Below are positions 327-13,265 of a DNA stretch of 59,332 bases, in pieces. The stretch is from positions 1 through 59,332 of the forward strand of contig CAYRBH010000006.1 in assembly GCA_964422585.1 (NCBI GenBank), read 5' to 3'. The notes beneath the pieces were generated by a model. It was not told the origin of the DNA. It ran no database searches and saw nothing but the letters and a program-made list of their open reading frames with translations. This DNA is from an uncultured Gammaproteobacteria bacterium. GTDB lineage: Bacteria > Patescibacteriota > Patescibacteriia > UBA1558 > 2-01-FULL-52-15. The position numbers and the translations under genes are program-made. Position 1 is the stretch's first letter; each line of letters starts with the position of its first letter.

Positions 327-584
327 GCACAACACCGCGTGTGCGGCTTCGCGTATGGCTTCCGCTCACACCACTCTGATATAGTTCTTTTCACTTCACT
401 GTTCAGAGAGATGAAGAAGCATGTCCTATACACTTAGCTTCTTCGTTCGCTCCAGGCCGCTTCGCCTACATCTGCGCGTGTTCTTTTGCGCTCCATTTCA
501 TTACGCGCATTGCATTTGCCCTCCGTATCCACTTCGGGCATAATGCTATCACGCGCAGACGTCGCATACGCACATACGTTAGAC
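327..584 (+). repeat. attC-like site 1 (258 bp)
   Basis: GCACAAC-ACC-GCGTGTGCG ... CGCATACGC-ACATAC-GTTAGAC. Confidence 0.8.
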
Positions 585-845
585 GCCATTCAAGGTGGGT
601 ACGTATCCTTACACAAAGCTCATGAGTAGAGCTTTCTTTTTGTTTTCAAGGGGTCTTGTCCTCTTTAGTTTAGAGTTGCTTTTGTTAGGATAGAGGCCAA
701 GGAGGGGAACAAAAAGAAAGCGAAAGAAGGTTATTTACTTGAGAAAAGGGTCGTCTCAAGCACCTTGAACACTGCGCCAGCCCCACACCACTTCCCTTTC
801 GTCCAGTAGTGTGGGGACGTTGCACTCTGGCTTGCCCTTCGGGGC

Positions 846-981
846 GCCTAACACCCGACTTGCGGCTACGCTCGGGTTGCACCACTCGCTTCGCCTACAT
901 TCGCACGTGCAGCTTGCGCTCCGTATCCACTTCGCGCTAAGCTTAGCACGTGCGAACGTCGCAAGTCGGTATACGTTGTAC
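846..981 (+). repeat. attC-like site 2 (136 bp)
   Basis: GCCTAAC-AC-CCGACTTGCG ... CGCAAGTCGG-TATAC-GTTGTAC; perfect 10-bp stem. Confidence 0.85.
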
Positions 982-3105: not shown

Positions 3106-3645
3106 ATGTCTTCTATCTCTACTAATTGGCATGTTGTAACTGGCGGGCCTTCGTCAGGAAAAACAAAGACTCTAGAGTATCTGTATGTTCTTGGGAACAC
3201 AATTGTCCCTGAAATGGCGAGAATGCTCATTGAAGATGAAATGATGACAGGGAAAACATTACAGGAGATACGACAACATGAGGGGAGTTTTCAAGAGCGC
3301 GTGTTGCAAATGAAAATAGAGACCGAGAACCAATTGGACCCACAAAAACATACATTTCTTGATCGAGGCATTGGAGATAGTATTGCATACTTTCGTCTGA
3401 ATTCTATGGATCCTCAACCTGTTTTTGAAGCATCAAAAAAGAGAATATATAAAACCGTATTTTTACTCGAACAACTTCCTTTTCAATCGGATGAAGCGAG
3501 AACAGAAAATGAAGACTCAGCCCGCCAGATCAGTGATTTGCTCTTTGAAGCGTACTCACAATTAAAATACAAAGTCATTAGAGTTCCCGTAATGCCTGTT
3601 CATGAGCGAGCGGTTTTTATTCTGGCGGAGATAAACATCACCTAA
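3106..3645 (+). CDS. Predicted P-loop ATPase, AAA_28/NadR-kinase-like (cassette 5)
   Basis: VVTGGPSSGKT Walker A and FLDRGIGD. The ORF-track extension to 3010 is attC sequence. Stop codon lies within R''. Confidence 0.85.
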   Translation: MSSISTNWHVVTGGPSSGKTKTLEYLYVLGNTIVPEMARMLIEDEMMTGKTLQEIRQHEGSFQERVLQMKIETENQLDPQKHTFLDRGIGDSIAYFRLNSMDPQPVFEASKKRIYKTVFLLEQLPFQSDEARTENEDSARQISDLLFEAYSQLKYKVIRVPVMPVHERAVFILAEINIT

Positions 3646-4259
3646 CACCGGATTGCCGATTCGCGAGCAAAAAACTTTTATAAAAGTAGCTAGTAAATAA
3701 AGCATCGTATGTTCATATCTGCCTACATAATAATCACTATCCTCATCATAACACTTGTTTTTCTATTACGAATGACAATAAGTACATTGGATGCCGTTCG
3801 TTGGTTAAACTTTAAAATAAATGTACTCGAACGATTGATTTACGAAAAAAAATTCGAACCTACCAAGAATGAGATTGAAAGCGCAGTAGATGCAACACTT
3901 GCTAACGATGTTGAGTACGCAGCAACAGTAAAAATGCTAAATAAATTTATTAAACGTGTTTATCGTAATAACGCCAGCAGTGGTCAAAAAACATTTAGGC
4001 ATATTATTGAGAAGAGGCTTGAAAACCCACAAAGCTACCAGATGGTGGCTATGGGTTTAATTAGTGCATCCGATGTCTATGAGACTACCGATATTTTTAA
4101 AGATGTGGATTTAGAGTCCGCGATCAAAAGATTTAAGGATAAATTTAAGAAGTGATTTTTTTGCTCGCTCATCCAAATTGCTTGTCCACTTAGCTGCTAT
4201 TTGAGATAATTATAGCAGCACGCGGACTGCGCAACTTCGGCAATCCGCATCCGTTAGGT
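3640..4259 (+). repeat. Giant attC-like site 6 (620 bp) enclosing CDS 3709..4155
   Basis: ACCTAAC-AC-CGGATTGCCGA at 3640 pairs with TCGGCAATCCG-CATCC-GTTAGGT ending 4259; no R'-type right half seen in between. Confidence 0.8.
3709..4155 (+). CDS. Hypothetical protein with N-terminal TM helix, nested inside attC site 6
   Basis: 148-aa open frame, AT-rich, flanked by 12-bp IR 3663-3674/4157-4168. Confidence 0.75.
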   Translation: MFISAYIIITILIITLVFLLRMTISTLDAVRWLNFKINVLERLIYEKKFEPTKNEIESAVDATLANDVEYAATVKMLNKFIKRVYRNNASSGQKTFRHIIEKRLENPQSYQMVAMGLISASDVYETTDIFKDVDLESAIKRFKDKFKK

Positions 4260-4300
4260 GAAATTTTTCAAAATCCCTTACTAATTAGGTCTTCATTAAG

Positions 4301-5591: not shown

Positions 5592-5605
5592 TTTTTTATT
5601 ACATC

Positions 5606-6326
5606 ACCTAACACCGGATATCCGGCTTCGCCAAAAAATATAAACAATTTTATTCCAAAGATATGAAAAAAATATTAATTATTCCACTATTCATTCTCAT
5701 TCTGGGCGGCTGTTCAAATCAGAACGCAAAAATTGACGAACAAAACAAAAAGATTGATGAGTTGAATAACAAAGTCACAGAATTAACTGCATCCAATAGT
5801 AAAAGTGACTTAGATCTTCAAGCTAAGTGTGCCACCCAAGCTCAAAAGGCTTTCGAAGACTTTAAAAAAAGTTACGCAGACTCACAATATTATTCGTATG
5901 CGCAAGAAAGCCACTATAACAAAACGTATGACAGGTGTTTTGTGCTAGTATCTTATTTAGTGAACTCTGGTCCTGTCTATAACGGAAAACCGTTCAGGCA
6001 AGCAACAAATGGAGAAGATCTATTGGATGCATACGGTAATAGAGATTTAGCTTCTTGCGAAATATTTGGCAACGACATACCAAACAACCAAACATGTATT
6101 GTAGAAGGAAATGGCGCAACCTATAAAGACTACACCGATTACGTCGTTCCGAGGCTAGAGTTGCCGCCCCAAAAATAGTGTTAGCAGAAAAAATAAAATT
6201 GTTTATATTTTTGGCTCGCGCAAATTGCTTGTCTGCTTAGGCGGTGGGTAGCGCTCCGTTGGGCTTCGCGCTACAATTATACCGCCACGCAGACTGCGCA
6301 ACTTCGGATATCCGCCTATGTTGTAC
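5606..6326 (+). repeat. Giant attC-like site 8 (721 bp) enclosing CDS 5663..6178
   Basis: ACCTAAC-AC-CGGATATCCG at 5606 pairs with CGGATATCCG-CCTAT-GTTGTAC ending 6326. Confidence 0.8.
5663..6178 (+). CDS. Hypothetical lipoprotein, nested inside attC site 8
   Basis: MKKILIIPLFILILGGC lipobox followed by a coiled coil; 171 aa; flanked by 24/25-bp IR. Confidence 0.8.
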   Translation: MKKILIIPLFILILGGCSNQNAKIDEQNKKIDELNNKVTELTASNSKSDLDLQAKCATQAQKAFEDFKKSYADSQYYSYAQESHYNKTYDRCFVLVSYLVNSGPVYNGKPFRQATNGEDLLDAYGNRDLASCEIFGNDIPNNQTCIVEGNGATYKDYTDYVVPRLELPPQK

Positions 6327-6374
6327 GAAATTGGCTTTCCTTAGATTATATATTAGTAAATTAACATCTTTTCT

Positions 6375-7335: not shown

Positions 7336-7343
7336 CTTACATC

Positions 7344-7363
7344 ACCTAACACCGCGTATGCGG
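7344..7363 (+). repeat. Left half only of attC-like site 10 (array end)
   Basis: ACCTAACACCGCGTATGCGG, then 7 bp and the stop of a convergent host gene; no matching right half seen. Confidence 0.75.
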
Positions 7364-7370
7364 CGCTGAT

Positions 7371-8212: not shown

Positions 8213-10846
8213 TTATGGCTGGACAACGAGCGTACGAAGCAGCGCAGTGAAGGCCTGCTTTGCCTGGCTTAAGACTTTGGCATCCTTGGTGATCGTCAGT
8301 AATTCGACCTCTACATGCTTAGCGCCAGCCGGAATGAGGTAGTCGACGCTCTGAGCGATAGTCTCATTCGTATCGCTATTCTTCAATGACGATTCGATAA
8401 GGACGACCTTCCTAAGTTTGCTATTGAGTGCCACATTGGCGCTCTTCTTTGAGATATCAAACTGAAAGCCGAGCGTGTCAAATGGTGTACCCAGGGACTG
8501 TATATTCTTAACATAGTAATCAAGCAAGCCCTGATTACCTTTCGCCGCGACCGATCGATCTGTCTCATGAATCCTGACCGAAATGCGGGCATCGGGGAAT
8601 TTCTTTGAATCTATAAATGCCGGGTTCGAGGCATCGACGAGTTTGGAGACAGCCCAATCCTTCGATGTCGAAAGTGACATCTTCGGATCAGTTTGAGAAA
8701 AGGTGGTCACTTGCGGCAAGGGGTTCGAAGAGTTCGCAGTCGCGGTGAATGACTGGATCATCGAATTTATAGTATCGATATCTTGGTCACCGTCACCGTA
8801 TTGCGCGGTTATATTAACGATATTGTTCCCAAAAACGAACACATACTTGTCGACCGTGAGCGACTGAGTTCCGTAGCTTCCTGAAAGCGTTATCTTCTTG
8901 CCGCGTATGCCATTGACCACGATATCCTTGGAAGCATCTATCGTCGCGAAGAACAAGCCGCCGGTGGTCAGGAGGTCACGCTTTACCTCAGGGATAATAT
9001 TAGCAGGACTGTACGGGAACGGTGTCCGATAGTAGACGATATTGACCATACCGCCGCTATCGGATGCTCCATTCTTAATCGTGATGATATGCTCACCATC
9101 GAATGTCGCGTCCCAGCCAGCCGGCTTATCGATGGTAAAGGGTAGCACTGGCGACCCGATGCTTGACGCTGTTTCAACATCACGCATTGTCTGAGCGAGC
9201 TGCGACATACGACTACTGATGGCTTCTTGGCGCGGGTCAGTGTTAATATACTGTTGCACCCATGGTGCTATTGAGCTGGACTGTATCACATAGCCAAGGC
9301 TGCCCAGGAAATCGCTCCTGCCGGCGGTCGTCAGGCCTATCAAGGAACCATTCTTATCCAAGGCCGCCCCACCAGAGCTTCCGAATGATATGACCGCGTC
9401 GGTCTTTATCCAATTGACATCATACTTTTTCAATTTGCCGCTCACTGTTCCTTTTGTCGCTGTAATACTACCTTCACCGATAGAGGGGTAGCCGACCGCA
9501 TAAAGATCGTCGCCGATCACCGTCGTATCATTGGTCATCAAAGGGATGGTATCGAAAGAGGTGGGCAGGCTCAGACCATCAATAGGCTCTATGCGGAGCA
9601 AGGCAAGGTCAAGCGTAGCCTCATACCGAATCAGGTCGGCACGATAGTTACATTTCGGCTCCTGGTCAATGTTCGTCGGTATACAGATGAGATACGTTGC
9701 CGGCTTGAATTTCCCGAACGAATCAGTCGCGTGCACGACATGCGCGTTCGTCAGCACGATCCCCCGTTGATCAATGATAACACCAGAACCAGAATCCAGG
9801 AGCGTTAAAAATCCATAGGGATTGATGACATACGTTTTGATCTCGACGATACTCTTGTAACGCTGACTCACGACTGGCGAATTCGGATCAATAGACTGCG
9901 CGACTGGTGTGCTCGTCGGGGTTGGCTGAGTCTGCGGTTGTGGGATAAGAGGCGGTTCTGTGGCGGGGCTTGCCGGGGCAGTATCTTTGGCAATATTGCT
10001 GACAGGTGTTGCCGAAGGCGCGTCCAAACAGACGCCATCGACACATCCATTCGTCTCACAATTCCTTAGGAGGTCGCTCTCATTCCCATACGGTGTGCAC
10101 CCATACTCCCGAATAGTACAATCCGTACCGATACACGACTTCATCGGCGTAACCTGGCCGGTCGTACTACTATCCAGCTCACAGGTATCCTCCTTCGTGG
10201 TGACAAGACTGTCGTTCTGATAGAGCTGTATGGTCGATTTCTTGGTCCAATCAAGCCCACCGTCATTGTCCACACATCTCAGCTGTGCATCGCTGATGCA
10301 GGCTCCATTACTGCATCCCCGCTGGCAGACAATCTCGCTTTCCTGCCCAAATGGACAAGAATACTCAAGCAATGTCTGGCCATCAGGCTCGCAATAATCA
10401 GTTAATGTTTGGTTATAGCCAGAGTAGGTCATCGAACCTTGCACCATCTCATTAGTGCCACCATCCGTGTCTGTGCATGATGAAGCAGCTATCGAGACCG
10501 GCATCCCGACTGGCGCAATCATAGTATCGCCCGCCTGCTGCGCCGCGCTCGCGAAATAACCCGCGACGGTCATGTCCTCTGGCGCCAATGATACATAGCC
10601 CTTCACACTTGGTTTCTTGATCGCAGGGCCAAGTACACGGCGTATCGACTTTGATGATCCATTAAAAAAAGAGCTAAAGGATCCTACTCTACCCTGTTCA
10701 CTTGATTGCATGATCACCACGAAGAAAGCGAGGATCAACGAAACAGGCAGGCCCACCGACATTAATCGAGCGAATGGTGATTTTTTCATAGATAGCATCC
10801 CAGGGAACGTTTTTAAAAACTCAAAAGACATTACTAAGTGTACCAT
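8213..10846 (-). CDS. Membrane-anchored trypsin-like (S1) serine protease with Cys-rich repeats
   Basis: TNAHV / DLALL / GSSGG catalytic triad motifs; start uncertain (about 10790-10846). Confidence 0.8.
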   Translation of the reverse strand: MVHLVMSFEFLKTFPGMLSMKKSPFARLMSVGLPVSLILAFFVVIMQSSEQGRVGSFSSFFNGSSKSIRRVLGPAIKKPSVKGYVSLAPEDMTVAGYFASAAQQAGDTMIAPVGMPVSIAASSCTDTDGGTNEMVQGSMTYSGYNQTLTDYCEPDGQTLLEYSCPFGQESEIVCQRGCSNGACISDAQLRCVDNDGGLDWTKKSTIQLYQNDSLVTTKEDTCELDSSTTGQVTPMKSCIGTDCTIREYGCTPYGNESDLLRNCETNGCVDGVCLDAPSATPVSNIAKDTAPASPATEPPLIPQPQTQPTPTSTPVAQSIDPNSPVVSQRYKSIVEIKTYVINPYGFLTLLDSGSGVIIDQRGIVLTNAHVVHATDSFGKFKPATYLICIPTNIDQEPKCNYRADLIRYEATLDLALLRIEPIDGLSLPTSFDTIPLMTNDTTVIGDDLYAVGYPSIGEGSITATKGTVSGKLKKYDVNWIKTDAVISFGSSGGAALDKNGSLIGLTTAGRSDFLGSLGYVIQSSSIAPWVQQYINTDPRQEAISSRMSQLAQTMRDVETASSIGSPVLPFTIDKPAGWDATFDGEHIITIKNGASDSGGMVNIVYYRTPFPYSPANIIPEVKRDLLTTGGLFFATIDASKDIVVNGIRGKKITLSGSYGTQSLTVDKYVFVFGNNIVNITAQYGDGDQDIDTINSMIQSFTATANSSNPLPQVTTFSQTDPKMSLSTSKDWAVSKLVDASNPAFIDSKKFPDARISVRIHETDRSVAAKGNQGLLDYYVKNIQSLGTPFDTLGFQFDISKKSANVALNSKLRKVVLIESSLKNSDTNETIAQSVDYLIPAGAKHVEVELLTITKDAKVLSQAKQAFTALLRTLVVQP

Positions 10847-13045: not shown

Positions 13046-13265
13046 ACCTGCTCTCAGTATAGCATAGGCTGCGCTGCCTATCCTAGTGACAAGGGCTCAG
13101 TAAGTTTCTGTATTGTTTTGCGTCTTCTTATTCTGTAATCAACAGGAAACTCAATACACTCTCGGCTGATACCGGCGATGTCTGGAAATCGAGCAGCGGT
13201 TCTTAGAGAGATATCAGCCGTCATTACTTCATCAGTAGGCGTTCATTGCACCCGTTCTTTGTACC

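Follow-up and report, generated by a model that had tools for sequence, protein, structure and literature searches.

A gene-less cassette in an integron-like array

We analysed a 59,332-nucleotide (nt) stretch of DNA, hereafter the window, that makes up contig CAYRBH010000006.1 (C6) of a source genome of 1,020,732 bp in 26 contigs, rated 94% complete. The host is a bacterium of the candidate phyla radiation (CPR; Patescibacteria-type), and the genomes of its 59 relatives and of its order all measure ~0.5-1.3 Mb. The contig opens with an integron-like array (window positions 1 to ~7365) of ten units on the + strand, with open reading frames (ORFs) between R''...R' pairs, in which a unit starts after the GTT core of an R' box and ends in a long attC site. 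Our subject is a cassette of this array that carries no gene (578-975) and, within it, a three-helix module (770-845) that is a conserved structured add-on to attC sites, common to CPR bacteria and to DPANN and other archaea.

Positions 578-975 are a gene-less cassette with the hallmarks of integron cassettes, namely G|TT cores at its bounds and an attC with paired R''/R' and L''/L' arms, of which the focal arms CCGACTTGCG and CGCAAGTCGG are complementary at 10 of 10 positions. On the + strand, the R' box GTTAGAC of the upstream attC (577-583) places the cassette boundary between G577 and T578. It is followed by the 5' arm of a terminal inverted repeat (TTCAAGGTG, 589-597), by a private, non-coding and self-complementary cargo (Domain 1, 598-760, with a 14-bp perfect repeat at 631-644/708-721 and a hairpin at 738-760), by the 3' arm of the repeat (CACCTTGAA, 761-769), by the conserved module (Domain 2, 770-845, delimited by covariance model and alignment) and by the focal attC (846-981), which comprises R'' GCCTAAC (846-852), L arms, a large hairpin (~897-959) and R' GTTGTAC (975-981). 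This attC is the array's shortest, and the first variable hairpin present in the others is missing from it.

A preliminary description, made from the letters alone, had read this cassette as lacking an ORF, and that reading holds. No credible ORF lies in the cargo, where the longest frame with a start codon is 32 aa (595-693, +), the other frames extend into the attC repeat (- strand, 66 and 76 aa; + strand, 43 and 65 aa), and stop-to-stop reading with TGA as Gly (table 25) gives no cargo frame above 46 aa. The same description had 771-845 look inserted into the terminal inverted repeat. Its anatomy was right: the other nine array cassettes have arms of different sequence analogous to 589-597, and in 9 of the 10 cassettes the arm abuts a 4-nt spacer and R'', whereas in the focal cassette alone it lies 75 nt away. 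A one-off insertion it is not, as a conserved, covarying module occupies the same spot in at least 70 cassettes from other genomes, CPR and archaeal, most of them gene-bearing.

Among sequencing-run contigs matched to the window, none skips the focal cassette or the module, and their joints fall in the attC repeats of other cassettes. The unitig spanning 559-937 had a k-mer depth 1.4-1.75 times that of the flanking-cassette unitigs in both runs of the source study (14 vs 8.8 and 8.0; 7.5 vs 4.7 and 5.4), which may reflect an additional copy or strain or else excision of the cassette.

The cassette had also been described as almost entirely nested stems, and all the pairings named are present. 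CAAGGTG (591) pairs with CACCTTG (761) within the full repeat arms at 589-597 and 761-769 (9/9), CTTGTCCTCT (655-664) pairs with AGAGGCCAAG (692-701) at 9 of 10 positions, and CTTGAGA (738-744) pairs with TCTCAAG (754-760) at 7 of 7. The 14-bp stem of GCTTTCTTTTTGTT (631-644) and AACAAAAAGAAAGC (708-721) pairs at 14 of 14 positions as claimed, although its earlier spelling was one T short. In Domain 2, helix P1 joins GCCAG (776-780) to CTGGC (827-831), helix P2 joins CCCCACAC (781-788) to GTGTGGGG (809-816) across a loop that is long in this copy, and helix P3 is the hairpin GCCC-TTCG-GGGC (834-845); the internal loop ACGTTGCACT (10 nt) lies at 817-826, between the 3' strands of P2 and P1.

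To place these stems against chance, we compared folding energies with those of dinucleotide shuffles (200 for 579-852 and 598-760; 100 for 560-990). Positions 579-852 folded at -90.8 kcal/mol on the + strand (z -2.21; 6 of 200 shuffles as good) and at -88.4 kcal/mol on the - strand (z -3.32; 1 of 200), while the interior at 598-760 gave -47.0 (z -2.38; 1 of 200) and -32.2 (z -2.15; 5 of 200), respectively. The structure of Domain 1 is thus real and only moderately beyond chance, its main driver being the 14-bp perfect repeat. Folded as DNA with the attC included, 560-990 reached z -6.28 on the bottom strand and -4.73 on the top strand (0 of 100 shuffles each), and in the minimum-energy fold of the bottom strand the R'' region pairs with the cassette start as the closing stem, and one junction has as its branches P3, P1/P2 and the inverted-repeat stem around Domain 1.

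A conserved three-helix module

Across its copies, the module reads from 5' to 3' as AACTC(T), P1 (usually GCCAG), P2, ACGTTGCACT, the 3' strand of P1 (CTGGC), TCG, P3, 2-5 nt and then R''. P2 is a CCC-loop-GGG hairpin with a loop of 3 to ~40 nt, P3 may be of any sequence and extends from ~12 nt up to ~65 nt with the longest inserts, and the whole module measures 60-120 nt without an ORF. The parts that do not change are the 5' AACTC and the 10-nt loop, and this loop resembles an R' box in having the ACGTT-purine end typical of R' ends in such arrays.

The preliminary description had proposed a candidate non-coding RNA, which homologues with compensatory changes could support, and for Domain 2 such homologues were found. 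In 70 distinct copies, aligned to the covariance model's own structure, 92.8% of paired cells were complementary against 80.7% in shuffles, with 0 of 500 shuffles reaching any of the measures, and 10 of 12 pairs (65 cells) carried changes on both sides. Swaps in P1 include GCCAG/CTGGC, GCCCG/CGGGC, GGGTT/AACCC, GAAATTT/AAATTTC and CAAAAATTT/AAATTTTTG, and P2 alternates between CCC/GGG and TCC/GGA. The proposal therefore stands for Domain 2 as far as conserved structure goes, while the strand data do not decide between RNA and single-stranded DNA. A match to a known family was not obtained: the scan of Rfam at gathering thresholds returned tRNAs only, a scan of 300-1100 at E<=10 returned only far sub-threshold microRNA, lncRNA and RAGATH-13 models, and six other module loci gave no Rfam match on the module. 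Locus L092, which has a module on one strand, gave on the other strand (1564-1702, +) a sub-threshold match to the sbcD RNA (31 bits against a gathering score of 40; E 0.0074), and this segment may be an attC of that array.

In 5 of 72 copies the 5' and 3' arms of P1 belong to unlike sequence classes, and the switch from one to the other falls within the conserved P2-loop core. P1 is broken in these chimeric copies, which are those of loci L039 (3' half as in L061), L074 (3' half as in L038), L096, L045 and L026:1647-1715.

The first hint of a wider distribution came from two groundwater runs matching 813-854. Window positions 814-854 were then found by BLAST in 3 of 400 other genomes of the class (75-90% identity), each time just 5' of an R'' box, and an exact degenerate 21-mer recovered 59 loci in a collection of species-representative genomes, of which we set aside three as chance matches (high-GC and without any flanking feature) and kept 56. 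By deposited label these comprise 20 CPR, 24 archaeal, 8 ‘Gammaproteobacteria’, 2 ‘bacterium’, 1 Caldithrix and 1 Mollicutes loci, labels that need care given that at least one ‘Gammaproteobacteria’ genome (1.0 Mb) belongs to the window's own class; the archaeal labels cover Woese-, Nano-, Aenigm-, Nanohal- and Bathy-archaeota, ‘Methanosarcinales’ and unnamed archaea. A covariance model (R1) found a single copy in the window's own genome (765-857, E 3.3e-11), 1, 2, 1, 5 and 1 copies in five other genomes, and matches, mostly single, in 11 of 150 other genomes of the class. Viral contigs held no match to the pattern.

Position and carriers of the module

In the window and in loci L029, L071 and L051, the module stands exactly where a 4-nt spacer would otherwise separate the 3' arm of the inverted repeat from R''. 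An automatic search resolved the cassette start for 37 of 66 module rows, the other 29 falling outside the ORF count (the window among them, owing to an arm mismatch). An ORF of at least 80 aa was present in 34 of these 37 cassettes, 27 in sense and 7 in antisense, with the qualifications that L054 and L034 were resolved by spurious short matches, which account for two of the three ‘short’ cassettes, and that the 34 include one mis-resolved span (L078:2032, which covers two cassettes).

Carriers without a gene are the focal cassette and, on a Magasanikbacteria contig (L051/L078), the two cassettes nearest to the recombinase gene. The latter two, at L078:2120-2763 (- strand; the same region as L051), are paralogous nested-hairpin cassettes of 217 and 212 nt with fold z-scores of ~-15 and -14 and five compensatory pairs between them, and a variant of the module with a long P2 follows each of them.

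Two units in another, closed genome (G473; locus L090) stand out. The first unit after its recombinase gene (~8290-8450) is nearly empty, with ~11 nt of cargo, and the fourth cassette (~13180-13260) has, at the place between inverted repeat and R'', a different insert of ~50 nt; this insert contains CCCGTTGGTCG, which recurs inside the neighbouring attC.

The IntI-like recombinase of the genome

The genome's only IntI-like recombinase is a tyrosine recombinase encoded at the start of contig C16 (130-1068; L001). It scores below the NCBIfam cut-offs of both the IntI and the XerA models (TIGR02249, 190.4 bits against 265; NF040815, 215.5 bits against 220), and its closest solved relative is IntI4 (2a3v). 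Query residues 218-241 align with residues 180-246 of the 2a3v chain, so that ~43 residues are absent; the absent stretch is one that we take to be the IntI signature domain. These CPR arrays may thus run on a recombinase without that insertion.

Contig C16 and the window both begin at contig ends, on separate contigs. The closed genome G473 has a 46%-identical homologue that borders, directly and divergently, an array with sites of this type; the module sits in the third of the five cassettes of that array and also beyond the final R' of a second array, one without a recombinase gene. Ten of the 56 loci encode a homologue of the C16 recombinase on the strand opposite to the module, 0.4-2.9 kb upstream of it, with the same geometry in all 10. 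We also considered whether the module derives from attI, and rejected this: a likeness noted by eye in L029 did not recur in L071, L051 or C16.

Domain 1 is private to the focal cassette

Comparison gave a different picture for Domain 1 (598-760). BLAST of 579-852 against its own genome returned itself and chance words of 13-19 nt, with no paralogue; the cargo had no homologue in the 59 relatives (only words of 15-39 nt, E >=0.005) or in 84 other genomes of the order (one ~30-nt low-complexity match), and Domain 1 had none by BLAST in 400 other genomes of the class. Nor did 596-845 resemble any of 12 attC segments of the array (Smith-Waterman on both strands, z <=1.6). In a word index of the Sequence Read Archive (SRA), two runs of one study, the source study, held the focal sequence at a share of 0.95 and contained an identical 379-nt unitig over 559-937, against a share of 0.04 for the other 18 holders; in two of these low-share runs (X6 and X11) the matches are confined to attC parts and 813-854. 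No RNA run was among the index holders listed, and the matched runs are contigs, hence uninformative on transcription.

For Domain 1, the earlier suggestion of a non-coding RNA gained no support, as there is no homologue and hence no covariation; comparison therefore neither supports nor refutes an RNA gene here. A remnant of an ORF was rejected, because both tblastx against the own genome and all fetched loci (nothing below E 0.27 except itself) and the table 25 reading came back empty. A miniature inverted-repeat transposable element or other small mobile insertion was rejected as well: both domains are single-copy in their own genome, and the flanking GCGCC repeat is part of the module and the R'' flank. 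A consensus scan found no sigma-70-like site within 579-852, and a terminator-like hairpin with a T-run lies at 615-635. The only word that Domain 1 has in common with L078/L051 is the 13-nt TCTTGTCCTCTTT, at the same offset of 73, with a local alignment score of 28 that 0 of 500 shuffles reach, a significance that is overstated since the word was spotted by eye among about ten loci. When the focal cassette was aligned with L051 by MAFFT, the module aligned and Domain 1 did not. Domain 1 is most likely a neutral or structural filler of an otherwise empty cassette and not a conserved RNA gene.

Other features of the array

The R'-type ends of the array lie at 3, 577, 975, 1628, 2226, 3081, 4253, 4928, 6320 and 6805 and the R''-type starts at ~325, 846, 1380, 2078, 2877, 3640, 4742, 5604, 6630 and 7342, all on the + strand. 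Its attC sites measure 135-250 nt and fold as three-way junctions, and the end ...CGCATACGC..ATACGTT recurs at six array sites where 0.41 would be expected by chance. After the last cassette ORF stands an orphan R''/L'' half-site (CACCTAACACCGCGTATGCGG, 7342-7365); this last R'' has no L'/R' partner and marks the distal end of the array.

Each cassette has a terminal inverted repeat of 9-20 nt that follows R' and a 4-5-nt spacer and is complementary to the stretch before the 4-nt spacer and the cassette's own R'', with a sequence that differs in every cassette (e.g., 2226-2248 with 2862-2884). If single-stranded, these repeats would enclose the cargo and draw adjacent attC sites towards each other, and in an excised circle they would lengthen the attC stem.

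Two attC sites (3640-4260 and 5604-6327) have their R''/L'' and L'/R' arms 600-700 nt apart, each around a whole ORF: 3709-4155 (148 aa) and 5663-6178 (171 aa, with a lipoprotein-like start). These ORFs occupy the place of the first variable hairpin of the other attCs and are flanked by inverted repeats of their own (GCGAGCAAAAAA/TTTTTTGCTCGC and a 22-nt AT-rich pair).

How the module might act

We propose, with moderate confidence and on comparative grounds, that the module serves the recombination site as an accessory arm and does so in folded single strands. A multi-way junction would then arise from the module, the inverted-repeat stem and the R''/R' stem, just at the R box's outer edge, and this junction would present an unpaired R'-like box that the array's own XerA/IntI-like recombinase could read. 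Excision and insertion of the carrier cassette might thereby be tuned, or the box might offer a secondary crossover point at which cargo and attC are re-assorted. We favour a role in recombination because the position of the module is fixed to the nucleotide at the R box edge, because its orientation follows the attC and not the cargo, because its invariant loop reproduces the ACGTT-purine signature of R' ends, and because the 5 chimeric copies among 72 have their breakpoint in the P2-loop core. Those chimeras hint at what a crossover at or near the R'-like box would be expected to leave behind.

Several observations weigh against an accessory arm. The chimeras are few, and either short homologous exchange or mis-assembly of metagenomes across the 19-nt shared core could account for them. 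Wobble pairs in P1 and P2 number 8 on the top strand (GT/TG) and 3 on the bottom strand (AC/CA), and a G-T pair stands at the base of P3 in ~28 of 70 copies; together these counts lean to the sense strand, i.e., to RNA. It is the bottom strand that attC recombination uses. For the module itself the folding energy is about equal on the two strands, with the top more stable in 17 cases and the bottom in 30. The proposal also leaves unexplained why arrays tend to hold one module each, the covariation was counted on an alignment fitted to the model's own structure, the C16 recombinase is without the IntI-specific insertion, and the link between recombinase and array in this assembly is one that we infer.

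The main rival, and a serious one, is an RNA element acting in cis within the array's sense transcript, for instance as a site of processing or self-cleavage, as a stabiliser or as an insulator between cargo and attC hairpin; we regard it as possible, though less likely than the accessory arm. Independence from host factors would account for a module found in bacteria as well as archaea, an invariant internal loop amid covarying helices of variable length is typical of small structured RNAs, and the module is always oriented in the array's direction of transcription. Besides the top-strand wobbles and the G-T pair of P3, the paralogous L078 cassettes show four one-sided changes to G-U on the sense strand, and the focal Domain 1 folds 15 kcal/mol better on the + strand. 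Against an RNA stand the missing Rfam family, the R'-box-like loop, the lack of any sense-strand preference in folding energy, and the small wobble counts (8 of 11 is not significant; binomial estimate ~0.1). The module's orientation, moreover, is tied to the attC, with the longest ORF antisense in 7 of the 34 resolved gene-bearing cassettes, and its nucleotide-exact position at the junction of inverted repeat and R'' is needless for an element of an untranslated region. A more far-reaching variant, which we consider unlikely, is that the module represents an undescribed class of element, a second recombinase crossover point or a small ribozyme just outside attC, by which cargo with the 5' half and attC with the 3' half are re-joined in new combinations; the gene-less all-hairpin cassettes of the window and L078 would then be its minimal carriers.

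Two further explanations concern the cargo. That Domain 1 is functional, as a small RNA gene or as a promoter or terminator cassette regulating its neighbours, seems to us rather improbable. Gene-less cassettes of Vibrio mostly carry sense promoters according to PMC11014356, the two paralogous hairpin cassettes with five compensatory pairs adjoin the recombinase gene in L078, one of them has the 13-nt word at offset 73, and the terminator-like hairpin would fit such a role; the absence of homologues in any collection searched, of a sigma-70-like site in the consensus scan and of a MAFFT alignment between the two cargo domains speaks against it, as do a branch architecture unlike that of the L078 cassettes and the overstated significance of the word. 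Still more improbable in our view is decay of the whole cargo, with Domain 1 a frameshifted gene remnant and Domain 2 the relic of a degenerate upstream attC left by cassette fusion, neither having a present function. Words of the module do occur inside neighbouring attCs (TTCG..GG..TTGCAC..TC..GCT and CGCTAC), the G473 cassette has its different ~50-nt insert at the same spot, and P1 is broken in some copies. Yet an invariant 10-nt loop and covarying helices in 70 copies from two domains of life argue for selection on Domain 2, and the empty tblastx and stop-to-stop readings of Domain 1 speak against a gene remnant.

The integron-like arrays of CPR bacteria and DPANN archaea are barely described, and what attC sites do beyond forming a simple hairpin is an open topic. 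Into this setting the module brings a sharply defined element of a size suited to synthesis, whose R'-like loop is invariant, whose place beside the recombination site is fixed and which occurs in both prokaryotic domains. It makes testable whether accessory arms tune or redirect attC recombination and whether cargo and attC are re-assorted at a secondary site. Were the module an RNA, cassette transcripts would have in it a new cis element common to both domains; should the second-crossover reading be true, the module would offer a way for a gene to gain a new attC and bear on the origin of integron cassettes. Domain 1 by itself is ordinary, a gene-less filler.

Comparison with known systems

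The array shares with canonical integrons its GTT-core-bounded units, attC sites built from imperfect inverted repeats with AAC and GTT ends, extra bases bulged on one arm, and a bias towards folding of the bottom strand. In the 47 attC sites adjoining modules this strand was more stable in 42, as in canonical sites, by a mean difference of 6.9 kcal/mol, with the caveat that automatic assignment may have misplaced some attC ends. The array differs in that its attCs are three-way junctions of 135-250 nt, in that each cassette has a terminal inverted repeat of its own outside the R box, in that the associated recombinase is without the IntI-specific insertion, and in the extra two-hairpin module that the focal attC has outside R''. 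Foreign sequence at a fixed position in attC is also seen with group IIC-attC introns and IS1111-attC elements, which exceed 1 kb and encode proteins or ribozyme domains; the module, in contrast, measures 60-120 nt, has no ORF and no Rfam intron match, and occurs once in the genome.

Archaeal integrons, DPANN included, and attC identity across domains have been described (PMC9668308), and the accessible text of that paper mentions neither CPR arrays nor such a module. In the papers searched we found no description of CPR integrons, of the module or of any accessory structure outside R'', with the proviso that the supplements of PMC9668308 and PMC5737381 could contain it, and the module appears to be undescribed so far. 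Delta-attI-type cassettes of mobile integrons (PMC12901181) have an extra partial recombination site in the cassette, whereas the attI regions of the loci that we inspected are unlike the module. Gene-less cassettes of Vibrionaceae superintegrons act as promoters, which according to the same authors cannot be identified in silico (Blanco et al. 2024, PMC11014356). Our focal cassette resembles them in being ORF-less and part of a sedentary chromosomal array, and departs from them in a hairpin-dominated cargo, where the consensus scan found no promoter-like site, and in a module common to gene-bearing cassettes.

A further parallel is offered by the DUF1874 and Transposase-resistance motifs of Weinberg et al. 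2017 (PMC5737381), which are, or could be, attC sites that work as single-stranded DNA. With these the module shares its multiple stems, a conserved internal loop, an origin in comparative genomics and the ambiguity between RNA and single-stranded DNA; it is set apart from them by the absent Rfam match. The two motifs recur in consecutive intergenic regions as the attC itself, in the account that this source provides, whereas the module is an add-on outside R'', usually present once per array.

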